A DNA stretch of 64,000 nucleotides from Thermodesulfobacteriota bacterium (GCA_049514515.1 JBEKUZ010000015.1:2606-66605), one strand, 5' to 3'; counted from the stretch's first letter, positions 1 through 36,368 are shown. Numbers and translations are program-made. The notes: generated by a model from the letters alone, not told the origin.

Positions 1-17
1 GGCCGTATTTTGCCGAC

Positions 18-704
18 GTGAAGATTGAGCGAATGCATTACCATGCCAAATCCGGTGTGCTCTCTCAGATCATCACAACGACCATGCACTGCACCACGCA
101 TGCCGATTCACCGGCCCATGTATTTGAGGGCGGCATGTTTACCGATGAGATTCCGCTGGAAAAGTACTATGGCACTGGGGTTGCGGTTTCGATTCCCAAG
201 AAAAAGTGGGAAAAGATTATGCCAGAAGACTTGGAGAAGGTTCGTCCTAAGATTGAAAAGGATGACATCGTGATGGTTAATACCGGCTGGCACCACAAAT
301 ACTCTGACAGCGTCGAGTATTTTTGCTACTCCCCCGGCCTCTACAGAGAGGCCGGAGAGTGGTTCGTTGCAAAGGGAGTGAAGTGTGTTGGGGTGGACCA
401 GCAGGCCCTGGACCACCCGCTGGCCACTGCCATCGGTCCTCACGGATCCGGCCCGCTGAGGCCGGACGTGTGCGCGGAGTACAAAAAAGTGACCGGCCGC
501 GATGTGCTGCAGGACTTTCCCGAATGGGAGCCGTGTCATAACCTTCTTCTGCGCAACGACATCATGGGCTACGAGAACGTGGGCGGTGACTTGGATAAGG
601 TCACTGGGAAGCGATGTACCTTTGCTGGCTTTCCGATCCGCTGGACGAAAGGCGACGGGTCCATCGTGAGGATCGTGGCTATCGTGGACAAGGGAGACCA
701 ATAG
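18..704 (+). CDS. Cyclase-family (kynurenine formamidase-like) metal hydrolase; candidate dihydrophloroglucinol cyclohydrolase; probably 5'-truncated by the window edge
   Basis: HCTTHADSPAH variant of the HxGTHxDxPxH motif; GVDQQALDHP; H...YENV; C-terminal GDGS. Confidence 0.85.
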   Translation: MKIERMHYHAKSGVLSQIITTTMHCTTHADSPAHVFEGGMFTDEIPLEKYYGTGVAVSIPKKKWEKIMPEDLEKVRPKIEKDDIVMVNTGWHHKYSDSVEYFCYSPGLYREAGEWFVAKGVKCVGVDQQALDHPLATAIGPHGSGPLRPDVCAEYKKVTGRDVLQDFPEWEPCHNLLLRNDIMGYENVGGDLDKVTGKRCTFAGFPIRWTKGDGSIVRIVAIVDKGDQ

Positions 705-790: not shown

Positions 791-1129
791 ATGAAAAAAG
801 TAGAATTGAAGGATGTCAAGCCGTACCAGGCCCCGAAACATTTTAATATGACCGCTCTGCGACTCCATGGAAAAGAAGAGAGCGGATCGAAAAAGTTCTG
901 GATGGGACTTTCCCATTTCTTGCCAGGAGGTGGAGCCGAATTCGACTCCACTCCTACGGAGAAGGTTTATTTCGTCCTCGACGGGGAGGTGACCATCAAG
1001 ACCAAAAAAGAAGAAATCGTACTTCGGCCGTGGGACTCCATCTACATCGGCCCCGACGAGGGCAGAGAGATCATCAATCGAACCAATAAGCCCGCCAGTA
1101 TGCTGGTGGTGATCAATTATCCTGATTGA
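791..1129 (+). CDS. Cupin-domain protein
   Basis: 112 aa; EKVYFVLDGEV...LRPWDSIYI cupin barrel pattern; GGAGGG upstream. Confidence 0.8.
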   Translation: MKKVELKDVKPYQAPKHFNMTALRLHGKEESGSKKFWMGLSHFLPGGGAEFDSTPTEKVYFVLDGEVTIKTKKEEIVLRPWDSIYIGPDEGREIINRTNKPASMLVVINYPD

Positions 1130-1140
1130 GGGGGCGTTTC

Positions 1141-1920
1141 ATGAACAAACAAGATATGCAAGGTCTTTTTGACGTGAACGGAAGGGTTGCCCTGATCACT
1201 GGGGCAACCGGTGGTTTTGGCAAGGCGGCTGCAAGAGGGCTTGCCGCAGCCGGAGCAAAAGTGATGGCGACCGCACGAACATCGTCGGCACTTGAGCTCC
1301 TCGTCAAAGAAATTCGTGAATCGGGCGGGCAAGCGGCATTTTCAGCAGGAGATCCTATCAACCATGAAGACGTGAAACGTGTGGTCAAGAATACAGTGGA
1401 TACCTTCGGCGGCATAGACATCCTGGTGACTGCCGCAGGGATCAACAAGGTCAAACCGATCACTGACCAGCCTGTTCAGGATTGGGAAGAGGTCATGGGC
1501 GTTAATGTAAAGGGCACCTACCTCTTCTGCAAGGAGGTGGGTCGGGTCATGATCAACCAGGGGCGAGGGGGTAAAGTGATCCTCGTTGGTTCTGCCCGCG
1601 GACACCTTGGCTTGGCAAACTATACCGCCTACAGCACATCGAAGGGTGCAGTGCATCTGTTGGCAAAGACTCTGGGTTGCGAATGGGGGCCTTACAAGAT
1701 CAACGTGAATGCCATTGCCCCTACGGTATTCAGGACAGCTCTGACTCAATGGATGTTTGACGATAATGCGTTTTATATGAATTTTCTCAAGCGCATCCCT
1801 TTAGGAAGATTGGGTGAGCCCGAAGACTTTATTGGAACGGTCATTTTCCTTTCATCCAAGGCGTCGGACTTTATGACCGGTGCAATCATGGATGTGGATG
1901 GGGGCTATACGGCAGGATAG
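1141..1920 (+). CDS. Short-chain dehydrogenase/reductase, phloroglucinol reductase-like
   Basis: TGATGGFG and YSTSK motifs; PTVFRxxLTxWMFD and NFLKRIPLGRLGEPEDFIG resemble clostridial phloroglucinol reductase as I recall it; start placed at ATG 1141 after GAGGGGG. Confidence 0.85.
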   Translation: MNKQDMQGLFDVNGRVALITGATGGFGKAAARGLAAAGAKVMATARTSSALELLVKEIRESGGQAAFSAGDPINHEDVKRVVKNTVDTFGGIDILVTAAGINKVKPITDQPVQDWEEVMGVNVKGTYLFCKEVGRVMINQGRGGKVILVGSARGHLGLANYTAYSTSKGAVHLLAKTLGCEWGPYKINVNAIAPTVFRTALTQWMFDDNAFYMNFLKRIPLGRLGEPEDFIGTVIFLSSKASDFMTGAIMDVDGGYTAG

Positions 1921-1929: not shown

Positions 1930-2871
1930 ATGCCAAATTCGGAACGTATTGCCGTTATCGGTGCCGGGATGATGGGCCATGGAATTGCACAAATTTTTGC
2001 AATCCATGGCCATCGGGTTTCTCTCCTTGATGTGAGCGATGAGATCCTGGCAAAAGCCATTGAGAACATTCGGATCAACCTGACCTTGATGGCCCAGAGC
2101 GGGCTCGGCAGCACGGCGGATATCGAACCTGCTATTAAGAGGATAAGAGTCACCCGGGACTTGGAAGAAGCTGTCCGGGATGCCCAGTTTGTCATCGAGG
2201 CGGTGCTCGAAAAGTTGGACCTGAAACAGGAACTTTTTCAGAAACTCGATGCCCTTTGTCCGTCAGAGACCATTCTGGCCACCAATACTTCAGTCATCAG
2301 CATCGCGGAAATCGGAGCCAGGGCCACGAGAAGAGACCGGATCGTGGGGACCCATTTCTGGAATCCACCCTACCTGGTGCCATTGGTTGAGGTGGTCAAG
2401 GGCAAAGAGACGTCTTCCAAGGTCGTAGGCCTTACGACAGACCTATTGAGATCTGTGAGGAAACATCCTGTTGAAGTCAAGAAGGACGTACCCGGTTTTG
2501 TTGGAAACAGACTCCAACATGCGCTCTGGCGCGAAGCCATCTCCATTGTGGAACAGGGTATTGCCGATCCTGTGACCGTCGATGAGGTCGTCAAGAAAGG
2601 CTTCGGTATTCGGTTGCCCGTGCTCGGACCTCTGGAGAATGCGGATATGGTGGGGTTGGACCTGACTCTGCAGATTCATGATTATATTCTCAAGCATATT
2701 GAAAGGTCCACGGAGCCCTCACCCGTCCTGAAACAGAAAGTGGAGAAAGGGGAACTTGGCTTTCAAACCGGTCGAGGCTTCTATGAATGGACTCAAGACA
2801 GCATGGAAGGATGTAAGAAGCGCTTCCTGAAACACCTGATACGCTGGGATGGAGAGCACTTAGAAGATTAG
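1930..2871 (+). CDS. 3-hydroxyacyl-CoA dehydrogenase family protein
   Basis: GAGMMGHGIA, EAVLE, TNTS, HFWNPP and PGFVGNRLQ motifs. Confidence 0.9.
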   Translation: MPNSERIAVIGAGMMGHGIAQIFAIHGHRVSLLDVSDEILAKAIENIRINLTLMAQSGLGSTADIEPAIKRIRVTRDLEEAVRDAQFVIEAVLEKLDLKQELFQKLDALCPSETILATNTSVISIAEIGARATRRDRIVGTHFWNPPYLVPLVEVVKGKETSSKVVGLTTDLLRSVRKHPVEVKKDVPGFVGNRLQHALWREAISIVEQGIADPVTVDEVVKKGFGIRLPVLGPLENADMVGLDLTLQIHDYILKHIERSTEPSPVLKQKVEKGELGFQTGRGFYEWTQDSMEGCKKRFLKHLIRWDGEHLED

Positions 2872-13254: not shown

Positions 13255-13357
13255 CAATTCCGACGACGAAGGGGAAAGCGAGGCTTCTTGTTCCAAAGGC
13301 AAAGGTAGGTTCGTTATCGCAATGTAAAAAAGCGCGAGAAAAGAAAGGAGCTCCGAT

Positions 13358-16539: not shown

Positions 16540-17475
16540 GTGGAAAAACTCATTATCACTGCTGCCTTGACGGGTAATATTACCCTACCGACGCAAACGC
16601 CTTATTTGCCTCTCACCCCTCAGCAGATCATCGATGACGCTGTGCGAGCGGCGAACGCGGGCGCTGCCTCCGTGCATATTCACGGGCGGGACCCGAAGAC
16701 TGCCAGACCGACGACGGACCCGGCAGTGTACAGGGAAATCGCGGCCGGGATTAAGGCCAGGAGCAACGTCATTGTGTGTATCACCACTGGCGGAACAGCA
16801 ACGATGACCCCCGAAGAGAGAGCCCAGGTGGTCCCTGCCCTCAAGCCGGAGCTGGCAACGTTTAACATGGGGTCGATCAATTTCTCAATCCACCCCATCG
16901 CCGACCGTTATCAGGATAAGGACTACAAATATTCGTGGGAAAAGGAATTTGCTGTGGGCACCAAGGACTTCATCTTTAGAAATACATTTGGCGATATCGA
17001 GAAACTGATGCAGATGATGAAGGATAATAGCACCAAGCCCGAGTTTGAGTTGTATGACGTTGGCCATCTCTACAACCTCCATTTCCTTGTCAGAGCGAAG
17101 ATCATCCACTTCCCGGTTTGGCTACAGTTCGTCACCGGGATTCTGGGCGGGATCGGGGCCAATGTCGATGAAGTAGTCCACATGAAGCAGACCGCGGATA
17201 GGCTATTAGGCTCGGACAACTACGTATGGTCAATCATTGGCGCGGGGTACCCGGCGGAATTTAATTTGGCGACCTTGGGCATTATGATGGGGGGACACGC
17301 CAGAGTAGGATTTGAGGACAATATATTTATTGAGAGAGGGGTTCTGGCGAAAAGCAATGCCGAGCTTGTAGACAAAGTGGTGAGAATCGCTCGGGAGTTG
17401 GGAAGAGAAATAGCAACTCCCGACGAAGCCAGAAAAATGCTCGGTTTGAAGGGGAGGGATAAAGTCAATTACTAG
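16540..17475 (+). CDS. Beta-keto acid cleavage enzyme (BKACE/Kce family); candidate triacetate acetoacetate-lyase
   Basis: IITAALTG, VHIHGRDP, RVGFEDN, SNAELV, ATPDEAR motifs. Confidence 0.9.
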   Translation: MEKLIITAALTGNITLPTQTPYLPLTPQQIIDDAVRAANAGAASVHIHGRDPKTARPTTDPAVYREIAAGIKARSNVIVCITTGGTATMTPEERAQVVPALKPELATFNMGSINFSIHPIADRYQDKDYKYSWEKEFAVGTKDFIFRNTFGDIEKLMQMMKDNSTKPEFELYDVGHLYNLHFLVRAKIIHFPVWLQFVTGILGGIGANVDEVVHMKQTADRLLGSDNYVWSIIGAGYPAEFNLATLGIMMGGHARVGFEDNIFIERGVLAKSNAELVDKVVRIARELGREIATPDEARKMLGLKGRDKVNY

Positions 17476-19252: not shown

Positions 19253-21211
19253 ATGGATGCAATGTTTCCAAAGCTGTTCGAGCGTGGGAAGATCGGGCGA
19301 TTGGAGATTAAGAACCGGGTGGTCAAAGCTCCAACGTATGGCGCTTTGAGTAACATCGACGGCTCCGTTACCGACCGCATGATAAGGTATTATGAAGAGG
19401 TGGCGCGTGGCGGGACAGGTTTGGTAATTGTCGAGAGTGCCTCGATAGACAATAAGGCAAGTAAAGCGGCCCCTTGTCAGCTTGGTATCTCCAGCATCGA
19501 GCATATTCCTGGGCTTGCTGCCCTGGCGCAAGGAATCTGTGATCAGGGTGCCCGGGCGGCACTGCAACTCACGCATTTCGGCAGAGACAACTTCCTGGGT
19601 ATTACGCCCGCAAAGTCTGCTTCACGGATCCCGATGTCGATGGGCGGGTTGGGTCCGTTTGCGACGTTCGCAGACGAACCGGTGCCGCAAGAGCTTACCA
19701 TTGAAGAGATCCAGGACATCGTGAAAGCGTTTGGTGACGCGGCTCAGCGGGCACAAACTGCCGGTTTTGAAATGGTAGAAGTACACGGGGCTCACGGCGG
19801 CTTGGTAACGAACTTTCTCTCACCCGGGACGAATAGGCGGAACGACATGTACGGGGGTTCCTTGCAGAACCGGATGAGATTTTTGGTGGAAGTCGTTCGG
19901 TCCATCCGGAAAAAGGTGGGACCGGACTTCCCGATCGGAGTGAGATTGAGCGGGAACGATTATGAGCCAAACGGCGTCGTGATTGAGGACACCGTGGAAG
20001 TCGCAAAGGTGCTTGAAAGTATCGGTGTCGATATCATCCATGTATCCGGTGGCAGTCATATCCGAGGGAACCACCTCGCCAGCCCAATGAGTGTTCCGGC
20101 CGGTCACCATATTCGTGAAGTGGAGGCGGTCAAGAGGGTAGTCCACATTCCCGTGATTGCCTCAGGCTCGATCACGACGCCCCAGTTAGCGGAGGAAATC
20201 CTGGAAAGTGGTAAAGCCGATTTTATCGCTTTGGCGAGGCCTCTCTTTGCTGATCCATACTGGCCACAAAAGGCGAGAGAAGGAAGACCCGAGGATATAA
20301 CACCCTGCATCCGTTGTAATGACGGTTGTCAGGATAGATCAAATCTGAGGTATCGACCTACCCAATGTACAGTGAATGTGGCCTTGAATAAAGGGGATAC
20401 CCTTGCCATTACTCCGGCGGACCGACAGAGGAATGTGGCAGTGGTGGGCGGCGGGCCCGGCGGAATGGAGGCTGCCAGAGTCTGCGCACTGCGCGGCCAT
20501 AAGGTGACCCTCTATGAGAAGCGGAGCTTAGGTGGCGCATTGATCGATGCTTCAGCCCCCGAATTTAAGGCAGACCTCAAACGACTGATAGACTACTATG
20601 TGACGCAGTTGAAGAAACTTAAGGTTGAAGTGATCCAGAAAGAGGCAACGGTAGATACGTTCAAAAAAGGAAACGTTGACGCGGTCATCGTCGCTGTCGG
20701 GGGAACACCGCTCATCCCCGACGTTCCTGGTATTGACAGGCCGATAGTCGTCACCGCCATGGATGTACTCCGCAAGAAGTCCCCTGTCGGTCAGAAAGTA
20801 CTCGTTGTGGGCGGAAATATGGTGGGGACGGAAGTAGGGCTGTGGCTGGCTGAACAGGGCAAAGAGGTTATTTTCGTCGAGATGCTCGACGAGTTCATGG
20901 CAAATGTTGGGATCTTTGATCAACTTGAGTATCACGAGAGATTGGCCAAGCAGAAGGTTGCCATCCATACGGGTAAACGGCTGGAGAGTGTGATTGACAA
21001 AGGGGCAATCGTCGTTGACAAGTTCGGCAGAAGACAGGAAATGATGGCAGACAACATCGTGCTTGCCGTGGGTTTCATCCCCCTGACCAGTCTCAGAGAA
21101 AAACTCGAAAAGGAAAAAGGCTTTGAGGTTTATGCGATAGGAGATTGTGTGAGCCCACGCAGGATTTTCGATGCCATACACGAAGCGTACCTGACCGCTC
21201 GAAAGCTCTGA
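19253..21211 (+). CDS. Old-yellow-enzyme family NADH:flavin oxidoreductase (FMN, 4Fe-4S, FAD; BaiCD/enoate-reductase type)
   Basis: GGTGLVI, EVHGAHGG, NRRNDMYGGS, CIRCNDGC...C, VGGGPGGME motifs. Confidence 0.9.
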   Translation: MDAMFPKLFERGKIGRLEIKNRVVKAPTYGALSNIDGSVTDRMIRYYEEVARGGTGLVIVESASIDNKASKAAPCQLGISSIEHIPGLAALAQGICDQGARAALQLTHFGRDNFLGITPAKSASRIPMSMGGLGPFATFADEPVPQELTIEEIQDIVKAFGDAAQRAQTAGFEMVEVHGAHGGLVTNFLSPGTNRRNDMYGGSLQNRMRFLVEVVRSIRKKVGPDFPIGVRLSGNDYEPNGVVIEDTVEVAKVLESIGVDIIHVSGGSHIRGNHLASPMSVPAGHHIREVEAVKRVVHIPVIASGSITTPQLAEEILESGKADFIALARPLFADPYWPQKAREGRPEDITPCIRCNDGCQDRSNLRYRPTQCTVNVALNKGDTLAITPADRQRNVAVVGGGPGGMEAARVCALRGHKVTLYEKRSLGGALIDASAPEFKADLKRLIDYYVTQLKKLKVEVIQKEATVDTFKKGNVDAVIVAVGGTPLIPDVPGIDRPIVVTAMDVLRKKSPVGQKVLVVGGNMVGTEVGLWLAEQGKEVIFVEMLDEFMANVGIFDQLEYHERLAKQKVAIHTGKRLESVIDKGAIVVDKFGRRQEMMADNIVLAVGFIPLTSLREKLEKEKGFEVYAIGDCVSPRRIFDAIHEAYLTARKL

Positions 21212-21257
21212 TTTCTTGAGGTGCCACAGGATAGGGTTCATAAGGAGGCAGTCAAAC

Positions 21258-23170: not shown

Positions 23171-24871
23171 ATGGCTAAAATAGAGGATCTGGGAGAGGTA
23201 ATCTCCACGGATGTGCTTATCGTTGGGGGTGGTATTAGCGGTCTTGCGGGGGCGATCAAAGCCAAAGAAGAATCATCGAAGCTGGAAGTTCTTTTAGTGG
23301 ACAAGCAGACTGTTGGGTGGGCAGGAAAGGCGTCGAAGGGAGGGGGGTACTTCATCGCATTGGGGGAGAAAGACGACGTGGATGAGTTTGTTGAATATCA
23401 TGTCAGAAACCTTGGATGCTATCTGAACGATCAGGAGTTGTTATATTCGTATGCCCGCCGATTTAATGAGACCGTTGAACAGGTTGCGGCTTGGGGAGCA
23501 AAGGTGGCAATGAATGCAGAGGGAAGGTTAGACACCGTCAAATGTCCACTTTTTGACCCTCGGTTCACGCCGAAATGGTCGATCGTTGGTGTAGATCTGG
23601 ATATGATGATGCCTTTACGGACGAGGGCTCGTAAAGCGGGAGTAAAAATACTAAACAAAGTCCAGGTGGTTGAGCTTCTGAAGCAGGATGACCGGATTGA
23701 GGGGGTGGTCGGCTTCAATCTGATCGATGGCCGCTTCTATATCATCAAGGCGAAGGCCACCATATTGGCGAACGGTAGTTGCAACTACAAGGTAAAGAGA
23801 ATGTGGCACTCCGGTTGCGGTGATGGCATTGCCGCGGCTTATCGTGCCGGGGCTGAGATAAGAAACGCTGAGTTTGGTAATTTCTTCGACGTTCATCGGA
23901 GGGACAATGACGGGCCGGCCTTCGACTATACCGCTCTCTATAATGCCTTAGGAGAAAACATCTCCCAGCGATATCGGCCCGAGCCACGACCTGACATTAC
24001 CGTGGATCTGCTTTTAGGTATGGAAAAGGAGGTAAAGGAAGGGAGGGGGCCGATCTATTGGGACCTGTCAGGGGCAAAGAAGCTGAGGGAGCCTATTCGT
24101 CGCTGGAACCGGCCCCGTTTCATTAGGTTTCACGACTACACACTGTCGAAGGAGCTTAAATACGGGACACCTCTATCGGCAAGGGCCGAGGTTTCAGTGG
24201 CCCTCAATGCCGAGCTTTCGCCTATCCGAGTAGACCATGCGATGAAAACCAGCCTTGCCGGCCTGTGGGCCACCGGGGACACCAGCCTCATGGGCTCAGG
24301 TTGTGTAGGGGCGGTATTTGCGCCCCCTGCTTTGATCAGAGGCATTGGCCTGGGGAATTCCGTACAATCTGCGTTGAGAGCAGCTCCATCCGCCGCCCGT
24401 TTTGCCTCTCAGGCATCAGCGCCTAAGATTAGCTACGGGGAAGTAAAGCGGTTGAAGGAGGTGATATTTGCTCCGATGGGGCGCACCAAGGGATTTTCTG
24501 CTGAAGAAGCCATTTATGGCATACAGGATGTCATGTGTCGGGTTCAATATAACCTACGCAGGAGCAAAGAGCGGTTGGAGGAGGGTCTGTCCAAGATCGA
24601 GAAAGTGCAGCAGAGATTACCGGAGTTGTGGGCGAAGGACGGTCACAGTCTGGGTAAGTGTCATGAGGCGAGGAATATCGCCGTATGCGGTGAGATGACC
24701 TTAAGGGCGGCTTTGACGAGGACAGAAAGCAGGGGGACACATATCCGGGAGGACTATCCGAATCGGGACGACAAGAATTGGCTCAAGTGGACGATCATCA
24801 GAGAGAAGTCGGGGAAGATGGTTGTTTCTACCGAGCCGGTACCTATAGAAAAATACAAGTTCAAACCGTGA
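23171..24871 (+). CDS. AprA/SdhA-superfamily FAD oxidoreductase, copy 2
   Basis: 566 aa, colinear with 13358-15058; C-terminal ~160 codons almost identical at DNA level. Confidence 0.85.
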   Translation: MAKIEDLGEVISTDVLIVGGGISGLAGAIKAKEESSKLEVLLVDKQTVGWAGKASKGGGYFIALGEKDDVDEFVEYHVRNLGCYLNDQELLYSYARRFNETVEQVAAWGAKVAMNAEGRLDTVKCPLFDPRFTPKWSIVGVDLDMMMPLRTRARKAGVKILNKVQVVELLKQDDRIEGVVGFNLIDGRFYIIKAKATILANGSCNYKVKRMWHSGCGDGIAAAYRAGAEIRNAEFGNFFDVHRRDNDGPAFDYTALYNALGENISQRYRPEPRPDITVDLLLGMEKEVKEGRGPIYWDLSGAKKLREPIRRWNRPRFIRFHDYTLSKELKYGTPLSARAEVSVALNAELSPIRVDHAMKTSLAGLWATGDTSLMGSGCVGAVFAPPALIRGIGLGNSVQSALRAAPSAARFASQASAPKISYGEVKRLKEVIFAPMGRTKGFSAEEAIYGIQDVMCRVQYNLRRSKERLEEGLSKIEKVQQRLPELWAKDGHSLGKCHEARNIAVCGEMTLRAALTRTESRGTHIREDYPNRDDKNWLKWTIIREKSGKMVVSTEPVPIEKYKFKP

Positions 24872-25084: not shown

Positions 25085-25951
25085 ATGAAGAATTTTGAAT
25101 ATCTCGAACCTCGGACAGTTGCAGAAGCTGTCTTTTTACTCACGGAGTACGGTGATGAAGCAAAGGTACTCGCAGGCGGTACCGATCTCATCGTCCAGAT
25201 GAAGTTGAAGAAGCAGACTCCAAAATACTTGGTCAATATCAAGAAGATTTCTGATTTAGACTATATAAGGTATGACAATAAATTTTTGAGAATCGGGGCC
25301 TTAACCACCTTTTCCGCATTAGCTCAATCTACAATGATTCAGGAAAATTTTAGCATACTGATGGATTCTGTTCGTGCCGTGGGCCCGCTTCAGATTAGAA
25401 ATAGGGGAACCATCGCGGGCAACTTATGTCATGCATCCCCTTCCGCTGATACAGCTCCATCTTTGCTTGCATTGGATGCAAGAGTGAAGACGGTTAGCTT
25501 GGGAGAAGAAAGAATGATACCGATAAAGGAGTTTTTCAAAGGACCCTTTGCGACATGCCTTAAGGCAGGGGAGTTGCTTACAGAAATCCTGGTGCCGAGC
25601 ATACCCTCAAACACCGGGGGGACCTATCTTTGGCTCCCAAAGAAAACGGCGGTGGATGAGACCTTGGTGGGAGTGGCGACCTTAGTGACACTGGATGTCA
25701 ATGGTGTCTGCGACGATGTCAAAATAGGTTTGGGCTCCGTTGCCCCGACACCCATCAGGGCCGAGAAGGCAGAAAAACTGCTTCATAAAAAGAAAATAGA
25801 GGATGGACTCCTGAGTGAAGTAGGGGAGATGGCCGTTGACGAAGCCGCGCCCCGTTCAAGAGCAGAATATCGAGCGAAGATGGTTAGTGTCCTTGTAGTC
25901 AGAGCGTTAAAGGAATCGGTAAGGAAGGTAGTATCTCATATGCGTAATTAA
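25085..25951 (+). CDS. Xanthine dehydrogenase family FAD subunit (CoxM/HcrB-like, no Fe-S insert)
   Basis: AGGTDL, QIRNRGTIAGN, ASPSAD motifs. Confidence 0.92.
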   Translation: MKNFEYLEPRTVAEAVFLLTEYGDEAKVLAGGTDLIVQMKLKKQTPKYLVNIKKISDLDYIRYDNKFLRIGALTTFSALAQSTMIQENFSILMDSVRAVGPLQIRNRGTIAGNLCHASPSADTAPSLLALDARVKTVSLGEERMIPIKEFFKGPFATCLKAGELLTEILVPSIPSNTGGTYLWLPKKTAVDETLVGVATLVTLDVNGVCDDVKIGLGSVAPTPIRAEKAEKLLHKKKIEDGLLSEVGEMAVDEAAPRSRAEYRAKMVSVLVVRALKESVRKVVSHMRN

Positions 25952-26006
25952 TTTTATTTTGTTCTATCCATGATTTTGAACCGGACAGGATGAGGGGGGC
26001 ATAACT

Positions 26007-26507
26007 ATGAAATGCTTGATAAGGTTAAAGGTGAATGGAGAGACATATGAAATCGCAGTGGAACCTAGGAAAACGCTGTTGGATGTGATCAGAAACGAGA
26101 TTGGTCTAACGGGTACGAAGAAAGGTTGCAACATGGGTGAGTGTGGCGCCTGTACGGTTCTTCTTGACGGGAAGGCGGTTTGCTCCTGTTTGGTATTGGG
26201 AGTAGAGGCAGATAGAAGGGAAGTGATAACGATCGAAGGATTGGGAAACGGGGTTCACCCAGATCCATTGCAGGAGGCGTTCGTCAAGCATGGTGCCATC
26301 CAATGTGGATTTTGCACCCCCGGTATGATCATGACTGCCCGAAAGCTGTTGGATGAGAATCCAAGCCCAAGCGAAGAAGAGGTAAGAGAGGCCATCTGTG
26401 GCAATCTCTGCCGGTGCACAGGCTACGTAAAGATTGTTGAAGCGGTGTTGGATGTCGCAAGAAGTGAAAAAGGGGGTAGAGATGCAGGACTACTCAGTCA
26501 TAGGTAA
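26007..26507 (+). CDS. Xanthine dehydrogenase family 2x[2Fe-2S] subunit
   Basis: GCNMGECGACTV, QCGFCTPG, NLCRCTGY. Confidence 0.95.
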   Translation: MKCLIRLKVNGETYEIAVEPRKTLLDVIRNEIGLTGTKKGCNMGECGACTVLLDGKAVCSCLVLGVEADRREVITIEGLGNGVHPDPLQEAFVKHGAIQCGFCTPGMIMTARKLLDENPSPSEEEVREAICGNLCRCTGYVKIVEAVLDVARSEKGGRDAGLLSHR

Positions 26508-28791
26508 GCGGCTTCCCCGATTAGACGGAATGGAGATCGTTACCGGAAAAGCAAAATATACAGATGATATCGTACTGCCCGGGACGTTGGCCGGAAAAAT
26601 TTTAACAAGTGAATATCCTCATGCCAGGATCCTTCATATCGATACCAGCAAAGCTGAAAAATTATCCGGGGTCAGGGGAATCATCACTGGCAAGAACGTT
26701 CCGATGGTCCAATATGGCTTCGCCAATTTCGTAAGGGACGAGTACCCATTAGCTTTCGATAAGGTACGGTATATCGGGGATGAGATTGCAGCAGTCGCTG
26801 CCATAGATGAAGATATCGCTGAGGAGGCGCTGGATCTGATTGAGGTGGAATATGAGGAACTCCCTTCGGTTTTCGATCCAGAGGAAGCGATGAAACCGGG
26901 TGCGCCGCGAATTCATGAGCATGCAGAGCGCAATATCTGCAGCAACCATGTGAGTCATGTGATTGGCGATGTGGATAAGGGATTTAGAGAATCCGACTAC
27001 GTCCGGGAAGATAGGTTTGTGACGCAAAACGTAAGTCACTGCTTTTTAGAAACCCGAAATTGTCTGGCCGATTTCAATGCCAATGGGGAATTGACCTTTT
27101 GGACATCGACGAGTTCGATTTATCTGGATCGTTTCGTGCTATCTCACTTATTGAAGATACCGGTGAGCAAGATAAAGGGGAATAGACCTTTTGTTGGAGG
27201 GGGTTTCGGTGGTAAGGGGGAAACGGTATCCTGTCAGATTTGCGCTGCTCTTCTATCCATGAAAACAGGAAAACCGGTAAAGATTACCCTTTCGAGAGAA
27301 GAACAATTTATTGCTGATCGTGGCAGACATAGATGGATTTTCGAGTTAAGAACGGGTGCCAAAAAAGACGGGACCATCATCGCCAAACAGTGCCGAGCGA
27401 TTGCTGATGCAGGAGCGTATAACTCATTGAGTTTTCTCATTCTCATGCACAGCGTCGGTTATTTTGATATCGTCTACCGGGTACCTAACGTGAGGTACGA
27501 TGGCGATATGGTGTATACGAATAACCCACCCTGCGGAGCAATGCGTTCTTTTGATTGTGTCCAGCTTCGGCTCGCGGATGATTCTCATATGGATATGCTC
27601 GCCAGGGATTTGGGAATAGATACGATCGATCTTTACTTGAAAAATGTGAGTGGGCCGGGTGATCTAACGGCCAGCAGATACAAACTCGATAGCAACGGCC
27701 TGCGAGAGTGCATCGAGAGAGTCAGAGACGACAGTGGTTGGAGGGACAAACGAGGCAGGTTACCCGTTGGGCGAGGAATAGGCTTTGCCGTAGGTGCTTC
27801 CATTGCAGGTGCTAAGAGCAGTAATGACGATCCCGATGCCTCTTCTGCACTTGTGAAGATTAACGAAGATGGTTCGGTCAATCTCCTCATCGCCGCGCAT
27901 GACGCGGGACAAGGGTCGAGGACTGTTTTTTCTCAGACCGTTGCAGAAGAATTGGGGATCGCCATCGACGATGTCAAGGTGAATTTTGTCATCGATACAG
28001 ACATAATTCCACAGGATCAAGGATCTTACGCCAGCCGGACTACGATCGGACTGGGGAATGCTGTACTGGCCGCTTGTAGAGACGCCAAACGTCAGATATT
28101 CGAGGTCGTCGCTGATCAACTACACGCCTCTGCTGAAGACTTGGAAGCAAAGGATGGGGTGATCTACTTGAAAGGGTCACCCGATGGAAGAGTGTCTTTT
28201 AAAGATGAAGGTGGTGCTCTATCCCTTTGTCTGACTTCCAAGAAAGTGGTGTTTCCCATTATAGGTAGAGGCCACTTTGAGCCGGAGACCGAGCCTTTCG
28301 ACTGGAAAACAGGCGAGGGAAATATATCGATTGCTTATGGTTTTACCGCAAAGGTTGCAGAGGTCGAAGTCGATACTGAAACGGGTCGCGTAAAGGTACT
28401 CAACGTGACTTCCGCCAGTGATGTCGGTAAAGCGTTAAACCCTTTGTTTCTGGAGGGACAGGACGAAGGGGCGATTGCCATGGGTATTGGACAGGCGCTG
28501 TTTGAGAAGCTTGAGTTAGACAAAGGTCAAATACTTAATCCATCATTTTCGGAGTACAAGATCCCCACTGCGTTGGACATGCCGCGGACGATAAGATCCA
28601 CTTGGGTGGAGACCCTTGACCCTCATTCACCATTCGGAGCAAAAGGGATTGGGGAGGCGGTTATTGTTCCGATGCCTGCGGCCATAGCCAACGCCGTATA
28701 CGATGCCGTCGGGGTGAGGATCAACGAATTTCCCATAACTCCTGATAAGATTCTGGAAGAGGTGGAGAAAAAAGGAAAGTTAGGCGAATGA
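26482..28791 (+). CDS. Xanthine dehydrogenase family molybdopterin-binding subunit (HcrA/CoxL-like)
   Basis: VGGGFGGK, GQGSRT, SYASR, GAKGIGE; active-site loop reads AMRSFD. Confidence 0.92.
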   Translation: MQDYSVIGKRLPRLDGMEIVTGKAKYTDDIVLPGTLAGKILTSEYPHARILHIDTSKAEKLSGVRGIITGKNVPMVQYGFANFVRDEYPLAFDKVRYIGDEIAAVAAIDEDIAEEALDLIEVEYEELPSVFDPEEAMKPGAPRIHEHAERNICSNHVSHVIGDVDKGFRESDYVREDRFVTQNVSHCFLETRNCLADFNANGELTFWTSTSSIYLDRFVLSHLLKIPVSKIKGNRPFVGGGFGGKGETVSCQICAALLSMKTGKPVKITLSREEQFIADRGRHRWIFELRTGAKKDGTIIAKQCRAIADAGAYNSLSFLILMHSVGYFDIVYRVPNVRYDGDMVYTNNPPCGAMRSFDCVQLRLADDSHMDMLARDLGIDTIDLYLKNVSGPGDLTASRYKLDSNGLRECIERVRDDSGWRDKRGRLPVGRGIGFAVGASIAGAKSSNDDPDASSALVKINEDGSVNLLIAAHDAGQGSRTVFSQTVAEELGIAIDDVKVNFVIDTDIIPQDQGSYASRTTIGLGNAVLAACRDAKRQIFEVVADQLHASAEDLEAKDGVIYLKGSPDGRVSFKDEGGALSLCLTSKKVVFPIIGRGHFEPETEPFDWKTGEGNISIAYGFTAKVAEVEVDTETGRVKVLNVTSASDVGKALNPLFLEGQDEGAIAMGIGQALFEKLELDKGQILNPSFSEYKIPTALDMPRTIRSTWVETLDPHSPFGAKGIGEAVIVPMPAAIANAVYDAVGVRINEFPITPDKILEEVEKKGKLGE

Positions 28792-28924
28792 AAGCCATGA
28801 GGGCTGCTTGGCCAAAAAATATTTCAAACGGGATGAGATTCAATTTTAAGTAAAAAGGGGAATGAAGAGAAGGATTCGCCCCGTTCCGAGAAAAAGTATT
28901 CTTGGTCCCAAAAAGGAGCTGAAA

Positions 28925-31309
28925 ATGGCACTCGGCAATGCAAAAGGCGGCGACAGAGTGAGTAAGCTAAAAGAGAAAGTCCTCGTTTCACCTTCTCTGT
29001 GCATCGAGAGAGGTTACTGGATGACAGAGTCTTATAAAGAAACCGAGACCGAGTTGCCTATTATCAGGAGAGCAAAGGGTCTGGCCAAAGTCTTAGAAAA
29101 TATGACCATTGCTATCGAAGATGGAGAGTTGATCGTAGGCCGAACGACGAGTAAAGTTCGCGGAGGCGCTATTCTCCCTGAAGTGGACTGGCGGTGGTAT
29201 TTAGAAGAAGCGGACACGATCTCTACCAGAGAATGGAACAGGTTTGCACCCTTGTCAGAAGAGGAAAAGGCGAAAATGAGGGAATTCCTTCCCTATTGGA
29301 GAGGAAAATCCCTGTATGAAAAGTGGGATACCATGTTGCCAGAGGAGGCGCGAAAACGGTATCACGTGATCCATGAAGCAGGCGCCTTTTCTGCAGCTTG
29401 CATCCATCCGGGTCACACCATTCCCGACTATGGGAAGGTACTTGCCACGGGGCTAAGTGGGATAAAGAAACAAGTCGATGTAGAATTAGGAAAACTGAAT
29501 CTCGCCAAGATAGAGGATTTCAGGAAGTACCATTTTTACAAGGCGGTCAATATAACACTTGAGGGGGCGGTTCATTTCGCTAGAAGGTATGCAGCGCTTG
29601 CCCGGAATTTAGCTGCGGACGAGACCCATAGCCAAAGGAAGGCCGAATTGAAAAGGATAGCAGAAAGTTGCGAGCGGGTTCCGGCCAATCCGGCGCGTAG
29701 TTTCTGCGAGGCTATCCAATCGATATGGCTCACCTATGTTCCCCTGATCGTTGAAGGACTAAGTTATGGGATCGGTTTCGGAAGAGCTGACCAGTACCTG
29801 TATCCCTTCTATAAGAAAGACTTGGAAGAAGGAAGGATTACTAAGAGAGAAGCGCGTGAGTTGATTGCGTTGCTTTGCATTAAAATAAACGGGACAGTAA
29901 TCCCGCAGTGCGAGGCAGTCGTCACAACCTTTGGTGGGCATCCTCTTACATGCAATTTTACAGTGGGAGGGTTAACCAAAGACGGGAGGGATGCCGTCAA
30001 TGAGCTATCCTACCTTTTTCTGGATGCTCAGGAGGACACGGGGCTATCCGCGGACGACGTGGTCGTCAGAATTCATAAAAATACCCCCAATGCCTTTTTA
30101 ATCAGAGCATGCCAAGTTGCCAAATCGCTGAGGGGAAAATTTAAGTGGGTCAGCGATGAGACATGCATCCAGCAATTGCTTCATGACGGAAAACCGATTG
30201 AATATGCACGGGACTATTGCGTAGACGGCTGTTTCCAGCCGACCGTCGGCGGTTACTCTCAGGATATCCCCGGAGGGCCGTTTAATCTGCCGCTCATGTT
30301 GGAGTTAGCGCTCAATAACGGTATCTCCCGGATCACAGGCGAACAAATTGGCCCCCAAACAGGGGACCCCCGAAAATTCAAATCTTACGACGACGTATGG
30401 GATGCCTACAAGAAACAGGTAGAAGCGCTCATCCCTTATGCCATTCTCTACAAAAACTCGGATAGGCAACTCTATGCCGAGTTTTGTCCGTCCCCATACC
30501 AATCCGCCATTTTTAATGGTTGCATCGAAAAGGGAATCGATATTATGTCCGGAGGAACCGTTCCGTATGCGACCCATTGCACATCGCTCGCGGGGGCGCC
30601 GAATGTAGGAGACTCCCTGGCAGCAATCAAAAAAGTGGTGTTTGAGGATAAGAGACTTACGATGGATCGAATCATTGACGCACTTGATGAGAATTTCGAA
30701 GGCGGAGAGGATGTGCTATGCATACTGACGGCCGCTCCGAAGTTTGGAAACGATGATGATTACGTTGATTCGATAGTGAATGACGTGCTCATGCATGGCA
30801 GTGGCGAGGTGGCCAAGGTGGAGGGTATTGCCGGGTCCTTATCCACCGCTGCTGCCGCTGTCGTTACGGGGAACGTACCACTGGGATATCACGTTGGAGC
30901 CTTACCTGACGGAAGGAAAAGAGGTGAGCCACTCTCCGAAGGCGGCATCTCTCCATACCAGGGCAGAAACGTGAGCGGGCCAACCGCCACCCTGAGATCC
31001 GTAGCAAAATTAGACCATGTAAAACTGACCGGCGGCTCTGTCTTGAACATGAGGTTCAGCCCAGCCTTGTTGAAAGATGAGTCAAATGTCAGAAAATTTG
31101 TTTCCCTGATAAGGACTTATTGTGAGACCGGCGGGTATCATGTCCAATTCAACATTGTCGATAGCGCCATGTTAAGAGACGCCCAGAAACATCCTGCAAA
31201 GTACAGAGACCTCCTGGTCAGAGTGGCGACGTATAGTGCGTACTTTGTTGAGCTGAGCCAAGAACTTCAGGAGGATATCATAAAGAGAATTGAGTTCCGG
31301 GACATGTAA
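28925..31309 (+). CDS. Glycyl-radical-enzyme homologue with Thr at the radical site (aminoacyl/threonyl radical enzyme candidate)
   Basis: PFL-like fold motifs GRADQYLYPFY, PKFGNDD, PDGRKRGEPLS, HVQFN; Cys loop DGCFQP; radical loop RVATYSAYF (ACG at 31229-31231). Confidence 0.9.
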   Translation: MALGNAKGGDRVSKLKEKVLVSPSLCIERGYWMTESYKETETELPIIRRAKGLAKVLENMTIAIEDGELIVGRTTSKVRGGAILPEVDWRWYLEEADTISTREWNRFAPLSEEEKAKMREFLPYWRGKSLYEKWDTMLPEEARKRYHVIHEAGAFSAACIHPGHTIPDYGKVLATGLSGIKKQVDVELGKLNLAKIEDFRKYHFYKAVNITLEGAVHFARRYAALARNLAADETHSQRKAELKRIAESCERVPANPARSFCEAIQSIWLTYVPLIVEGLSYGIGFGRADQYLYPFYKKDLEEGRITKREARELIALLCIKINGTVIPQCEAVVTTFGGHPLTCNFTVGGLTKDGRDAVNELSYLFLDAQEDTGLSADDVVVRIHKNTPNAFLIRACQVAKSLRGKFKWVSDETCIQQLLHDGKPIEYARDYCVDGCFQPTVGGYSQDIPGGPFNLPLMLELALNNGISRITGEQIGPQTGDPRKFKSYDDVWDAYKKQVEALIPYAILYKNSDRQLYAEFCPSPYQSAIFNGCIEKGIDIMSGGTVPYATHCTSLAGAPNVGDSLAAIKKVVFEDKRLTMDRIIDALDENFEGGEDVLCILTAAPKFGNDDDYVDSIVNDVLMHGSGEVAKVEGIAGSLSTAAAAVVTGNVPLGYHVGALPDGRKRGEPLSEGGISPYQGRNVSGPTATLRSVAKLDHVKLTGGSVLNMRFSPALLKDESNVRKFVSLIRTYCETGGYHVQFNIVDSAMLRDAQKHPAKYRDLLVRVATYSAYFVELSQELQEDIIKRIEFRDM

Positions 31310-31314
31310 ATCAA

Positions 31315-32289
31315 ATGTTAGAATCAAGGAAATCGAGAAAGCGAATAGATGATGAAAGTATGAGTAGAATCAAGAACGAGCAGGGACTGGTATTCCATAT
31401 CATACATGGGTCTTTTGTCGATGGTTACGGGGTAAGAACGCCAGTATTTCTGAAAGGGTGTCCTCTGCGGTGCATCTGGTGCTGTAATCCGGAGGGGCAG
31501 AAAGGACACCCCGAAATCAAATTCACGGCTTCACACTGTAATGGATGTGGAGAATGCGTAGCCGCTTGCCCCGCTAATGCGATTGCTCTCAATTTAAAAC
31601 GAGAAGACGATAGACTTCGAATTGATAGAGAGCGATGCACGAATTGTGGGAAGTGTATGGAAGTCTGCGACAAGGGAGCTTTAGACTGCTTTGGAAAATA
31701 CTTCACCCTCGATGAACTGTTTGATGTGATTAAACGGGATGAACAGTATTATCATGAGTCCGGAGGCGGAGTGACGATAGGCGGCGGAGAACCAACCTTC
31801 CAGCCGCTTTTCACCCTGAAATTTCTGAGGAAGTGCAAGGAGAATGATATCCATGTGGCATTGGATACCTGTGGATACACAACGACCCGTGAGGGGTTTA
31901 AAGCTCTTGAAGAAGCGGACCTATTACTGTTTGACGTAAAAGGTATGGATCCCGACGAACACTTAAAAAATACCGGTGTATCAAACAAACCGATCCTTGA
32001 AAACCTCAAGAAGCTCAATGCAATGGGGAAGCCGATAATCATCAGGGTGCCTCTCATACCGGGATACACCGATTCAACAAAAAAAATCGAAGAGACCGCT
32101 GAATTTCTATCCAAGTTAAAATCTGTAGAAAGAGTGGATCTTTTGGCTTTTCATGAATATGGGAAAATAAAGTATGTGCAACTTGGGAAAGAATATAGAT
32201 TAAATGTTCAACCCATTTCCCAGGAGCGCTTAGATGATATCAAAGCGATCTTAGAGCGGTACGGGTTAAACACCCAGCTGGGTGGCTAG
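31315..32289 (+). CDS. Radical-SAM activating enzyme with ferredoxin-like insert
   Basis: GCPLRCIWCCNPE; CNGCGECVAAC and CTNCGKCMEVC; GGVTIGGGEP; true start may be ATG 31360. Confidence 0.93.
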   Translation: MLESRKSRKRIDDESMSRIKNEQGLVFHIIHGSFVDGYGVRTPVFLKGCPLRCIWCCNPEGQKGHPEIKFTASHCNGCGECVAACPANAIALNLKREDDRLRIDRERCTNCGKCMEVCDKGALDCFGKYFTLDELFDVIKRDEQYYHESGGGVTIGGGEPTFQPLFTLKFLRKCKENDIHVALDTCGYTTTREGFKALEEADLLLFDVKGMDPDEHLKNTGVSNKPILENLKKLNAMGKPIIIRVPLIPGYTDSTKKIEETAEFLSKLKSVERVDLLAFHEYGKIKYVQLGKEYRLNVQPISQERLDDIKAILERYGLNTQLGG

Positions 32290-32359
32290 TGTCTTTGTCC
32301 AGATCAAAAGTGAAGCTCGCAATCGAGAATTTGCATTAGGCTTTCGGAGGAGGTGCGCT

Positions 32360-33193
32360 ATGGGTTCGCGGAACCGAAATTTAATGGGCAAGGTGGCGAT
32401 TATTACGGGCGGGGGCACTGGTTTAGGCAAGGCAATCGCTCTGGTTTTAGCAAGGGCAGGGGGGGCGGACGTTGTCGTTGCCGGCCGCCGTGTGGAACCC
32501 TTAGAACAGACAGCAAAGGAAGCAAGAGCCATAGGGCAAAGGGCACTTGCTGTTCCAACGGATGTCACCGATTCCCAGCAGGTCAATCGGATGATTGAGC
32601 GAACCTTATCGGAGATGGGGAAAATTGATATTCTGATAAATAGCGCAGGCATTCCTTCTAGTCACTTGGAGCCAATCGAGGACATCACGGATGAGGAGTG
32701 GCATCGGAGTATAAGTGCTAACCTCACTGGCACCTTTTTCTGTTGCCGTGCGGTAGCAAGGCACTTCCTGGCTCAGAAAAGCGGGAAGGTGATCAATATC
32801 TCCGCCGGCGGCGGGCTCAGGGGTGGACGGGACAACTACGCGTATTGCGCTGCTAAGGCCGGGGTCATTAGCCTTACCTGCTCTCTGGCGTGGAGCTGGG
32901 CTCGGGACAATATCCAGGTGAACAACATTGCCCCCGGATGGTTTGATGTTTCAAGCCTACAGCCACAGACTGAGCCGCCAAAGATTCCAGCAAACGTAGT
33001 ACAGGAAAGAGGTGCGCGTATCCCTGTGGGGCGAGCCGGGATACCGCAGGAAATTGGTTTTCTGGCGCTCTTTTTGGCCTCGGATGCGTCGGATTATATC
33101 ACGGGTCAAACATTTATTATGGATGGGGGTTCGCTCGGAGCGGCACACGCCCCCGCTGGATATGTTCCTGCTATTACCTTAAAGGAGGATTAA
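32360..33193 (+). CDS. Classical SDR oxidoreductase
   Basis: TGGGTGLG, NSAG, YCAAK; GGAGGAGG RBS before ATG 32360. Confidence 0.9.
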   Translation: MGSRNRNLMGKVAIITGGGTGLGKAIALVLARAGGADVVVAGRRVEPLEQTAKEARAIGQRALAVPTDVTDSQQVNRMIERTLSEMGKIDILINSAGIPSSHLEPIEDITDEEWHRSISANLTGTFFCCRAVARHFLAQKSGKVINISAGGGLRGGRDNYAYCAAKAGVISLTCSLAWSWARDNIQVNNIAPGWFDVSSLQPQTEPPKIPANVVQERGARIPVGRAGIPQEIGFLALFLASDASDYITGQTFIMDGGSLGAAHAPAGYVPAITLKED

Positions 33194-33194
33194 C

Positions 33195-33950
33195 ATGGTC
33201 TCTGAAGAATTTACTCTTTGGGGCGAGACAGCTTTGGTCGCCGGGGATAGTCGGTTCTGGAGCAAGTATGTCGCCGCAGCCCTCGCCGAGGCGGGAGCTG
33301 ATGTCGCTGTTGCCGCCAGGAACTCCAAGAAGTTGGATGAAGCGGTGCGGCAGGTACTGCGTCTGGGGAGAAAGGCGATGGCCATACCTATAGATATGAC
33401 CAAATCTTCTCATATTGAAAAGATGGTGGAGCAGGTTCTTGCCGAGTTTGGCAAGATAGACATTCTGGTGAATGCCTCCGACCCGGAATTTGTCAAACCG
33501 TTCGTAGAAATAAAGGAAGACGAGTGGCATCGGATTGTGGAGACCAGCCTGTTTTCTGTTTTTCATTGTTGCCAAGCCGTGGGCAAGCATATGTTGGAGA
33601 GGAAGAAAGGGAGGCTCATCAATATCACCTCCTGTTTGGCGGAAAGGGGTCTCACCAACAGTAGTGCATACTGCGTAGCGATGGGGGGGATACTTCAACT
33701 CACCAGGGCGTTGGCTTTGGAATGGGCTCGAGATGGGATTACCGTAAATGCTATCGGGCCGGCGTGGTTCTCGGAGACGGGTAAAACCGGGATGGGCCAG
33801 GAAGACGTCCTTTTGCGCTACCTCCCGTCAAAGCGCTATGGTCATCCTGAGGAAATAGGCTCGCTGCTTGTCTATCTGGCCTCTGATGCGTCGGACTTCA
33901 TCACGGGTCAGCTCGTGTACGTCGATGGCGCCGTTATGGTGCATATTTAG
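33195..33950 (+). CDS. Atypical (degenerate) SDR
   Basis: SDR scaffold (IDILVN, VNAIGP, ITGQLVYVDG) but Gly motif reads AGDSRFWS and YxxxK reads YCVAM. Confidence 0.8.
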   Translation: MVSEEFTLWGETALVAGDSRFWSKYVAAALAEAGADVAVAARNSKKLDEAVRQVLRLGRKAMAIPIDMTKSSHIEKMVEQVLAEFGKIDILVNASDPEFVKPFVEIKEDEWHRIVETSLFSVFHCCQAVGKHMLERKKGRLINITSCLAERGLTNSSAYCVAMGGILQLTRALALEWARDGITVNAIGPAWFSETGKTGMGQEDVLLRYLPSKRYGHPEEIGSLLVYLASDASDFITGQLVYVDGAVMVHI

Positions 33951-35795: not shown

Positions 35796-36368
35796 ATGGT
35801 AGGAATCATGGACATGAAAACTGGTTTCATCCGGTTGCGGCCCGAGGATACCAAAACGGAGTATGGTCGATCCATTCCAATCCATCCTGAAGTGATGGAA
35901 ATTCTGAGGAAAGCATTGAAGGTTAGATCTTTGGACATGGAGAAAGTCTTCCACCGAAACGGGAAACCGATTACCAAAAGCACGGTGAGGGAGGCTCATG
36001 AGTCTGTCTGCAAAAAGGCAGAGATCGAGAATTTCACCTTCCATGACTTCCGTCATACCTGCATCAATAATTGGAGAAAAGACGGACATGATTATTTCAA
36101 AATCATGGCGGCATCAGGGCATCGGACGATTTCGGTTTTCAAGCGATACAATTTGGTGGACGAAGAAGAACTGAAGATGCTGGTCAATCCGGAAAGTATA
36201 GTCAAAAAATGGTCAAATTCCCCAAACAACCCTACCGAGGATCATTTCTTAAAAGAAGCTAATTTATTGAAAGAATGGTGCCGGAGGTCGGAATCGAACC
36301 GACATGGGGTGGAAGCCCCGCGGGATTTTGAGTCCCGTGCGTCTACCAGTTTCACCACTCCGGCATAA
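35796..36368 (+). pseudogene. C-terminal fragment of a tyrosine recombinase/integrase
   Basis: FHDFRHT, SGHRT and KRY present; N-terminal domain and first catalytic Arg absent; frame runs antisense into the tRNA. Confidence 0.8.
36276..36364 (-). tRNA. tRNA-Leu(CAA)
   Basis: Reverse complement GCCGGAG...GGGACT-CAA-AATCCC, long variable arm, GGTTCGATTCC, CTCCGGC-ACCA. Confidence 0.96.

Follow-up and report, generated by a model that had tools for sequence, protein, structure and literature searches.

A predicted threonyl-radical enzyme and its activase in a catabolic island of a Thermodesulfobacteriota bacterium

Homologues of the glycyl radical enzymes (GREs) in which Ala, Ser or Thr occupies the radical site were described by Fu et al. 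(2024, J Am Chem Soc, PMC11528403), whose main text reports experimentally demonstrated C-alpha radicals. In that text the Thr-type members, or threonyl-radical enzymes (TREs), number 71, come mostly from gut metagenome-assembled genomes (MAGs), generally occur as two TREs beside one activase, form Thr C-alpha radicals, show signs of a thiyl radical and are of unknown function. Thr-to-Gly variants gave a doublet of the Gly type. Eliminase-like chemistry is proposed there, and the varied genomic contexts are said to make reaction prediction difficult. These aminoacyl radical enzymes were described only in 2024; a review of June 2026 (PMC13450708) states that no function has been elucidated for any of them, and no literature on TRE function after Fu et al. 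2024 was found. The present study concerns a gene pair at positions 28925-32289 of a 64,000-nucleotide stretch, given as one strand, from a Thermodesulfobacteriota bacterium (GCA_049514515.1 JBEKUZ010000015.1:2606-66605; this whole stretch is called the window), in which an earlier reading of the DNA alone (the original prediction) had noticed a radical enzyme with Thr in place of the invariant Gly. Judged from the sequence, the first gene (28925-31309) very probably encodes a TRE of the kind that Fu et al. described, and the second (31315-32289) its dedicated, TRE-type radical S-adenosylmethionine (SAM) activase. The class is already known, and the window enzyme adds one more TRE. The locus leaves the definition of the class unchanged; it offers an activase signature, the loss of an active-site Glu, a spread beyond the gut and a lead on the substrate, four points that are not stated in the main texts of these papers and some of which the supplements of Fu et al. 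may already show.

Radical site and membership in the threonyl class

Nucleotides 31220-31246 (aga gtg gcg acg tat agt gcg tac ttt) translate to RVATYSAYF, and the RVATY segment aligns with RVAGY of the glycerol dehydratase structure 1r8w. As the original prediction had read directly from the window, the radical-site codon is ACG, and both of its first two bases must change to reach any Gly codon (GGN). The open reading frame (ORF) runs without interruption and includes the Cys loop DGCFQPTVGG, with Gln where eliminases have Glu, so the further claims of an intact gene, a catalytic Cys in GCFQP and a missing Cys-x-Glu glutamate also stand. Pfam domains PF02901 (624.5 bits, residues 31-675) and PF01228 (112.2 bits) are both matched, and alignments to solved GREs cover the full length. 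The ORF list gives a longer frame (28862-31309); the start at ATG 28925, which had been proposed, is likely because an AAGGAG box lies 6 nt upstream and relatives of 794 aa align from there, and the longer start at 28862 is probably unused. Coordinates of this and the other features are collected in Table 1.

Thr at the radical site is shared by nearly all close relatives. A search of 5.8 billion database proteins gave 120 best matches at 59-94% identity; RV[AS]T[YWF] is present in 118 of them, and P0029 and P0088 fall outside the motif pattern. A profile-free scan of 1.84 billion cluster representatives (50% identity clusters) showed that all full-length representatives at 45% identity or more have Thr; the first Ala (P0135) and Gly (P0137) representatives appear at 44%, and Thr representatives are interleaved with others down to 42%. 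A FastTree phylogeny of 167 rows with SH-like support was built from P0001, P0003-P0012, every sixth protein of P0013-P0122, representatives of 740-900 aa and the genome's own Gly enzyme, and its root was drawn on a single, arbitrarily chosen Gly row. In this tree, whose rows do not include the characterised FpTREs of Flavonifractor plautii, a single branch (support 99) cuts off all 41 Thr rows from the rest, so that one state change is enough to set the Thr group apart. The window protein falls within the Thr clade, in a subclade of 10 rows (support 100) that all read GCFQ. This placement, inside a class for which Thr C-alpha radicals have been demonstrated experimentally (PMC11528403), favors the original reading of the protein as a threonyl-radical enzyme. 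In the same quick FastTree, the Ala-type P0135 is placed next to the Thr clade as its sister, and two changes are needed to explain the three Ala rows; the main text of Fu et al. places Ala enzymes apart from Thr and Ser enzymes.

The closest described system, FpTRE1/FpTRE2 with FpTRE-AE of F. plautii, resembles the window locus in several respects given in the main text of PMC11528403: Thr replaces Gly in RVxG[FWY], the Cys of the Cys loop is conserved, the adjacent radical-SAM activase has a CX3CX2C motif and auxiliary clusters, and the Thr enzymes form a monophyletic clade. The two differ in that each activase here accompanies one TRE, compared to generally two in the published text, that the host is apparently a peat or wetland bacterium rather than a member of the gut Eubacteriales, and that the window enzyme belongs to a distinct GCFQP Cys-loop subclade. 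Among the 120 relatives of the host's fumarase that were listed, the one with an organism name is labelled 'Deltaproteobacteria bacterium' (80% identity). Only one TRE occurs in the window and in the genome, and a single TRE is also found in 31 of the 39 TRE loci examined. The nearest proxy for the characterised enzymes, the TREs of Lawsonibacter hominis (L018), is 48-50% identical to the window enzyme. A third PFL-like gene in the window's genome (L003, contig C133 of G000, 64-1386, minus strand) encodes a truncated protein of 440 aa that is approximately 33-35% identical to the TRE.

An alternative explanation is that the Thr stems from faulty sequencing or assembly, or that the gene is a decaying, non-working GRE. 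The source is a MAG of 157 contigs with 4% contamination, which gives such an explanation some purchase, as does the origin of the matching read data: the 28925-32289 stretch is identical in contigs from four of four peat or wetland runs (depth approximately 9-17), and the assembly may itself have been built from these runs. Against it stand the two base changes that an error would need, the Thr shared by 118 of the 120 closest database proteins, which come from many sources, and an intact frame accompanied by an activase of matching signature. In addition, among 14 other species of the genus that were searched, an orthologue was found only in a sister species (G010; 93-94% identity), where the Thr is encoded by ACC, a synonymous difference from the ACG of the window. 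The 48 distinct TRE genes in the fetched loci use all four Thr codons (ACC in 19, ACA in 13, ACG in 8 and ACT in 8). Comparison with the G010 orthologues gave dN/dS values of 0.11 for the TRE (794 codons), 0.21 for the activase and 0.15 for each of the two short-chain dehydrogenase/reductase (SDR) genes downstream, and the TRE gene is under purifying selection. The original prediction had held that Gly in the nearest homologues together with relaxed selection would speak against it; Thr and a dN/dS of 0.11 were found instead. The same genome provides an internal control in a canonical enzyme (L002) that reads RVAGFSAYF and is accompanied by an activase reading FSVHDGPGIRT. Error or pseudogene status was rejected on the relatives' Thr, the dN/dS, the codon variety and the identical run contigs, and its probability is negligible. 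The window stretch was present in 20 peat or wetland runs; no RNA run was among those listed as containing it, a result that is silent on expression.

Table 1. Features of the window, with coordinates counted from its first nucleotide.
Feature	Coordinates	Strand	Basis or remarks
Cyclase-family (PF04199) hydrolase	1..704	+	ORF begins 58 nt before the window; follows helix-turn-helix (HTH)-cupin regulator
SDR, candidate phloroglucinol reductase	1126..1920	+	Best PDB match 5g4k, 239 bits; next 183
3-Hydroxyacyl-CoA-dehydrogenase (HADH)-family protein, candidate triacetate-forming dehydrogenase	1930..2871	+	
BKACE-family enzyme, near-equivalog of 3,5-dioxohexanoate (triacetate) cleaving transferase	16540..17475	+	Pfam BKACE 343.8 bits
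Two-domain old yellow enzyme (OYE)/FMN + FAD/NAD ene-reductase (BaiCD / dienoyl-CoA reductase type)	19253..21211	+	10/39 TRE loci
FrdA/AprA-like FAD flavoprotein, stand-alone	23171..24871	+	Pfam FAD_binding_2, Succ_DH_flav_C; paralogue 13358-15058
Three-subunit xanthine-dehydrogenase-family Mo enzyme (FAD, 2Fe-2S, Mo)	25085..28791	+	Variable cassette
Predicted TRE, PFL-like and Gly_radical domains, 794 aa	28925..31309	+	Pfam, ribosome-binding site, Thr clade, dN/dS 0.11
Predicted catalytic Cys codon (residue 436), loop DGCFQPTVGG, Gln at Cys+2	30230..30232	+	Aligns with Cys433 of 1r8w
Radical-site Thr codon ACG (residue 769/794) in RVATYSAYF	31229..31231	+	Translation; G010 orthologue ACC
Predicted TRE-type activase (radical SAM + two ferredoxin-like clusters), 324 aa	31315..32289	+	TIGR02494, motifs, FVDG signature
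SDR oxidoreductase 1	32282..33193	+	Overlaps activase stop codon; 94% orthologue at same position in G010; dN/dS 0.15
SDR oxidoreductase 2	33195..33950	+	Starts 1 nt after SDR1; 94% orthologue in G010
Island right boundary: integrase C-terminal fragment (+) into tRNA-Leu(CAA) 36276-36364 (-)	35796..36368		

The activating enzyme and the active site

The activase gene starts 5 nt downstream of the TRE gene, and an alternative start at 31360 matches a 309-aa orthologue. Its sequence reads IIHGSFVDGYGVRT, with the signature GSFVDGYGVRT. The protein contains CPLRCIWC (CX3CX2C), two CX2CX2CX3C ferredoxin motifs and GGGEP, scores 329.2 bits against TIGR02494 (cut-off 174.35) and matches the Pfam Radical_SAM and Fer4 families. 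The prediction of an intact neighbouring activase with an altered QRxSxHDGPGIRT region is thus borne out by the 324-aa frame and its signature.

A survey of 159 loci from genome and metagenome collections, in which each activase was paired with the nearest full-length enzyme, gave 129 pairs, of which 4 with more than 3 kb of separation and 11 with an unreadable radical residue were set aside. Beside Thr enzymes there were 22 pairs, 20 of them readable, and all 20 activases contain FVDG; the residue within DG-x-G is Tyr in 13, Trp in 4, Phe in 1 and Pro in 2. Beside Gly enzymes (89 pairs, 87 readable) FVDG was never seen, and the same residue is Pro in 66, another non-aromatic residue in 21 and aromatic in none. 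All three activases beside Ala enzymes read DGPG. These counts support the replacement of HDGPG by GSFVDG-[Y/W/F]-G in the TRE clade, and the co-varied activase of the original prediction holds in the form of a clade signature. Two features temper the argument from covariation: Pro is kept by two Thr-side activases (L094 and L101), and, because the Thr clade is monophyletic, the signature may reflect one ancestral event rather than many. In the pyruvate formate-lyase activase (PFL-AE; structure 3CB8) the DGxGxR loop presumably touches the substrate peptide.

TREs are common outside the gut. Thr-type enzymes accompanied by FVDG-type activases were seen in archaeal and several non-Firmicutes MAGs, which belong to Bathyarchaeia (L020/L021), Acidobacteriota (L029), Chloroflexota (L004/L005/L009) and Desulfobacteraceae (L006). 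The TRE of the acidobacterial locus is split into ORFs of 620 and 198 aa and may be frameshifted.

In alignment with glycerol dehydratase 1r8w, Cys433 corresponds to the Cys of GCFQP (GCVEP there) and His164 is kept (in GH), but the window enzyme has Gln for Glu435, Ser/Tyr for His281/Ser282 and a gap opposite Asp447; the roles of these dehydratase residues (Glu435, His164, His281/Ser282 and Asp447) are assumed. An alignment of 259 proteins of 700-900 aa extends the observation to the class. Glu stands at Cys+2 in 3 of the 130 Thr enzymes, compared to 80 of the 122 Gly enzymes, and the position is occupied among Thr enzymes by Thr (50), Ser (36) or Gln (13), among others. The His equivalent to His164 is retained in 129 of the 130. 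In the tree, subject to its arbitrary root, the earliest Thr branch reads GCHE, GCHE and GCMQ, and its sister pair (one Ala and one Gly enzyme, P0135 and P0142) has Glu; in locus L101 a Pro-keeping activase stands beside a Glu-keeping TRE. These observations, read from one FastTree, fit an order of events in which Thr was acquired, then Glu was lost and then Pro gave way to an aromatic residue in the activase. The loss of Glu from nearly all sampled TREs and its retention in the earliest-branching ones argue against simple eliminase chemistry for most of the class.

For the window enzyme itself, one potential explanation is that of a classical 1,2-eliminase with a Gly-to-Thr swap, acting on a vicinal diol or amino alcohol in the manner of glycerol or propanediol dehydratase, HypD or CutC, with the SDRs reducing the resulting aldehyde or ketone. 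The best matches among solved structures and NCBIfam models are eliminases, with full-length alignments to CutC (9f3w, 5fau; 562 bits) and to glycerol dehydratase (522 bits) in which the Cys and the His164 equivalent are conserved, and downstream SDRs would suit the reduction of a carbonyl product; the main text of Fu et al. (PMC11528403) likewise proposes eliminase-like chemistry. The score against TIGR01774 (PFL2/glycerol dehydratase subfamily), the best-matching NCBIfam model, however, is 662.4 bits, below the cut-off of 678.2, and all equivalog models (HypD, CutC, HpsG and others) are far below their cut-offs. The enzyme also departs from these structures in its Thr radical residue and in the replacements at Glu435, His281/Ser282 and Asp447. 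Because the Cys-x-Glu general base is missing and replaced by Gln, the TRE probably does not work as a textbook eliminase of the diol or amine type, and this explanation is considered quite unlikely.

By homology to the F. plautii system, the activase would cleave SAM reductively and take the hydrogen from the C-alpha of Thr769. The radical stored on this Thr would then oxidise Cys436 to a thiyl radical, which would abstract a hydrogen atom from a small-molecule substrate.

Operon, island and candidate substrates

The TRE and activase genes share an operon with SDR1 and SDR2, located at the right end of an approximately 36-kb same-strand catabolic island. The genes are separated by a 5-nt gap, an 8-nt overlap and a 1-nt gap, their order is kept in G010, and every gene from the window start to 33950 lies on the plus strand. 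A promoter and terminator scan of 24800-34400 found no excess over shuffled sequence (8 vs 9.9 and 10 vs 9.8, respectively), so the limits of the operon rest on gene spacing and synteny.

The original prediction had proposed an aromatic or polyphenol-derived substrate from the neighbourhood of the TRE. Its immediate upstream neighbour, the Mo enzyme, resembles 4-hydroxybenzoyl-CoA reductase (HcrABC) in that its alpha subunit is closest to TIGR03194 (725.2 bits), but all three subunits are below the cut-offs of these models: alpha against 994.55, beta at 106.9 against 404.55 (covering only positions 3-116 of a 321-position profile) and gamma at 179.8 against 257.8. In G010, two SDR genes (L176 8212-9843) occupy the place of the Mo-enzyme trio, with the rest of the island 88-93% identical, and Xdh-family genes stand beside the TRE in none of 39 other TRE loci. 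The Mo enzyme, being a swappable cassette that is not conserved with the TRE, is a poor guide to the substrate and was discarded as one.

A second potential guide is a set of phloroglucinol-type genes. The island contains members of all four families of the pathway, namely a cyclase, an SDR, an HADH-type protein and a BKACE enzyme, spread over approximately 17 kb. The best structural match of the SDR, 5g4k (with 5g4l), is presumably a phloroglucinol reductase. A structure model of the window SDR built from a 5-row alignment had a mean pLDDT of 53 and was not used. The BKACE enzyme scores 406.9 bits against NF053538, just under the cut-off of 430, and curated models and solved structures gave no match named DPGC or TfD for the island candidates. 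The anaerobic phloroglucinol pathway of Clostridium scatologenes consists of PGR, DPGC, TfD and TAL according to the main text of Zhou et al. (mBio 2023, PMC10470551), and the island resembles that cluster, by family only, in having one member of each of the four families. Unlike that cluster, the island module is dispersed over its 17 kb together with CoA ligases, an OYE-type reductase, FAD flavoproteins, an Amidohydro_2 protein, the Mo enzyme and the TRE operon; the words 'glycyl radical' do not occur in the main text of PMC10470551.

Orthologues of all four window genes form a contiguous four-gene cluster in genome G032, and genome G017 has an uninterrupted run of the SDR, HADH-type and BKACE genes, its cyclase gene being approximately 5 kb away. 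In the sister species G010 the HADH-type gene (L175 3132-4077) appears as two overlapping ORFs of 181 and 191 aa and may be frameshifted. Two further TRE lineages stand beside such genes. In L083, whose TRE is 76% identical to that of the window and also reads GCFQP, a cyclase (81%) and regulator (78%) lie approximately 7 kb from the TRE, with two FAD flavoproteins and an S15 hydrolase in between. In L097, whose TRE is 52% identical and belongs to another subclade, the order is SDR-cyclase-BKACE-HADH-LysR-activase-TRE-MFS (MFS, major facilitator superfamily), and the SDR matches 5g4k with 496 bits. Three TRE lineages beside phloroglucinol-pathway genes thus define a testable substrate space, and the setting is one in which anaerobic phenolic degradation bears on carbon storage, namely peat.

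There are several potential explanations for this association. One, which is tentative, is that the TRE would be an accessory 'funnel' enzyme that works on a ring compound derived from a polyphenol, perhaps once an SDR has reduced it, and feeds the phloroglucinol pathway. A more specific and more doubtful form of this explanation is that, in peat bacteria, an SDR would dearomatise a polyhydroxybenzene-type compound, the radical pair would cleave a C-O or C-C bond of the reduced ring, a cleavage that would be beyond any two-electron enzyme, and the resulting cyclic 1,3-dione (for example of dihydrophloroglucinol type) would pass to the cyclase, HADH and BKACE enzymes of an anaerobic polyphenol pathway. 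If this were true, an aminoacyl radical enzyme would for the first time have a physiological role, the class would be linked to peat carbon turnover (the 'enzyme latch'), and the loss of Cys-x-Glu and the Pro-to-aromatic change in the activase would mark a new reaction type rather than a variant eliminase.

Alternatively, the enzyme may be a functional TRE whose substrate is unrelated to polyphenols (for instance an amine, an aliphatic hydroxy acid or a derivative of a sugar or polyol) and whose position in the island is accidental; the chance of this is slightly less than even. Its conserved immediate partners are only generic SDRs and an FrdA-like flavoprotein, the island is a mosaic with cassettes swapped between sister species, and the varied contexts of TREs hinder reaction prediction, as the main text of PMC11528403 cautions. 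A comparison of 39 TRE loci, out of more than 1000 database hits, with 100 Gly-enzyme loci, in which related loci were counted as independent and the counts are therefore overstated, identified the OYE-type ene-reductase rather than the cyclase as the enriched neighbour (10/39 vs 1/100). SDRs are weakly enriched (10/39 vs 13/100), and no enrichment was found for the FAD flavoprotein (3/39 vs 3/100), CoA ligase (1/39 vs 1/100) or Xdh (0/39 vs 1/100).

Other results weigh against a polyphenol funnel in the same way. The module of the window lies 12-28 kb from the TRE, and the cyclase occurs in only 2 of the 39 other TRE loci. The L097-type unit of LysR, activase and TRE recurs in L014 and L022 with no phloroglucinol genes within 10 kb. 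The module stretches of G017 and G032 contain no TRE, and none was found in those genomes with the window query; because both have the module without the enzyme, the TRE is not part of the core phloroglucinol pathway. To these are added the sub-threshold BKACE score and the assumed identity of 5g4k given above. The assumption of an unrelated substrate, in turn, has to account for the presence of cyclase, SDR, HADH or BKACE genes beside three TRE lineages (window and G010, L083, and L097; 52-76% identity), the absence of cyclase and BKACE genes from all 100 Gly-enzyme loci, the packing of regulator, cyclase and TRE within approximately 7 kb in L083, and the peat or wetland habitat. An aromatic or polyphenol-derived substrate is therefore plausible: the direction of the original prediction is supported by the phloroglucinol gene set in the island and beside two other TRE lineages, and its basis in the adjacent Mo enzyme probably is not.

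Further features of the island

The FrdA-like FAD flavoprotein recurs with the TRE subclade in two copies each in the window, in G010 (92% identity, upstream of the TRE) and in L083 (flanking the TRE); its nearest structure is the alpha subunit of PAPS reductase (E 2e-30). Synteny with G010 spans positions 1-35809 except for the swapped cassettes and ends at 35809, and an old integration site seems to mark the end of the island. G010 also lacks a counterpart to CoA ligase B, has an Amidohydro_2 protein located between OYE and FADb, and contains two more genes inserted elsewhere.

A CoA ligase and an FrdA-like flavoprotein occur as a pair twice in the island (10332-15058 and 21216-24871). Each pair cross-matches the G010 counterpart of the other at 76-82% nucleotide identity, and the arrangement looks like a segmental duplication inside the island. 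The genes at 2930-10037, between the phloroglucinol-type genes and the first CoA ligase, encode proteins of the Ycf48-like, HAE3/RND transporter and DUF1329/LolA-like types and one of 552 aa that belongs to no known family, and may form an uptake or export system for hydrophobic compounds.

Two recurrent neighbours were seen at other TRE loci. An S15 (X-Pro dipeptidyl-peptidase / CocE-type) hydrolase adjoins the TRE in L083 (3901-5733) and L006 (2548-4398); the two hydrolases are 76% identical and the TREs belong to different subclades. In addition, in the gut-type loci L097 (14072-15547), L014 (12856-14202) and L022 (12809-14155) the LysR-activase-TRE unit is followed by a protein of approximately 450-490 aa that matches no NCBIfam model and is 73% identical across the loci.

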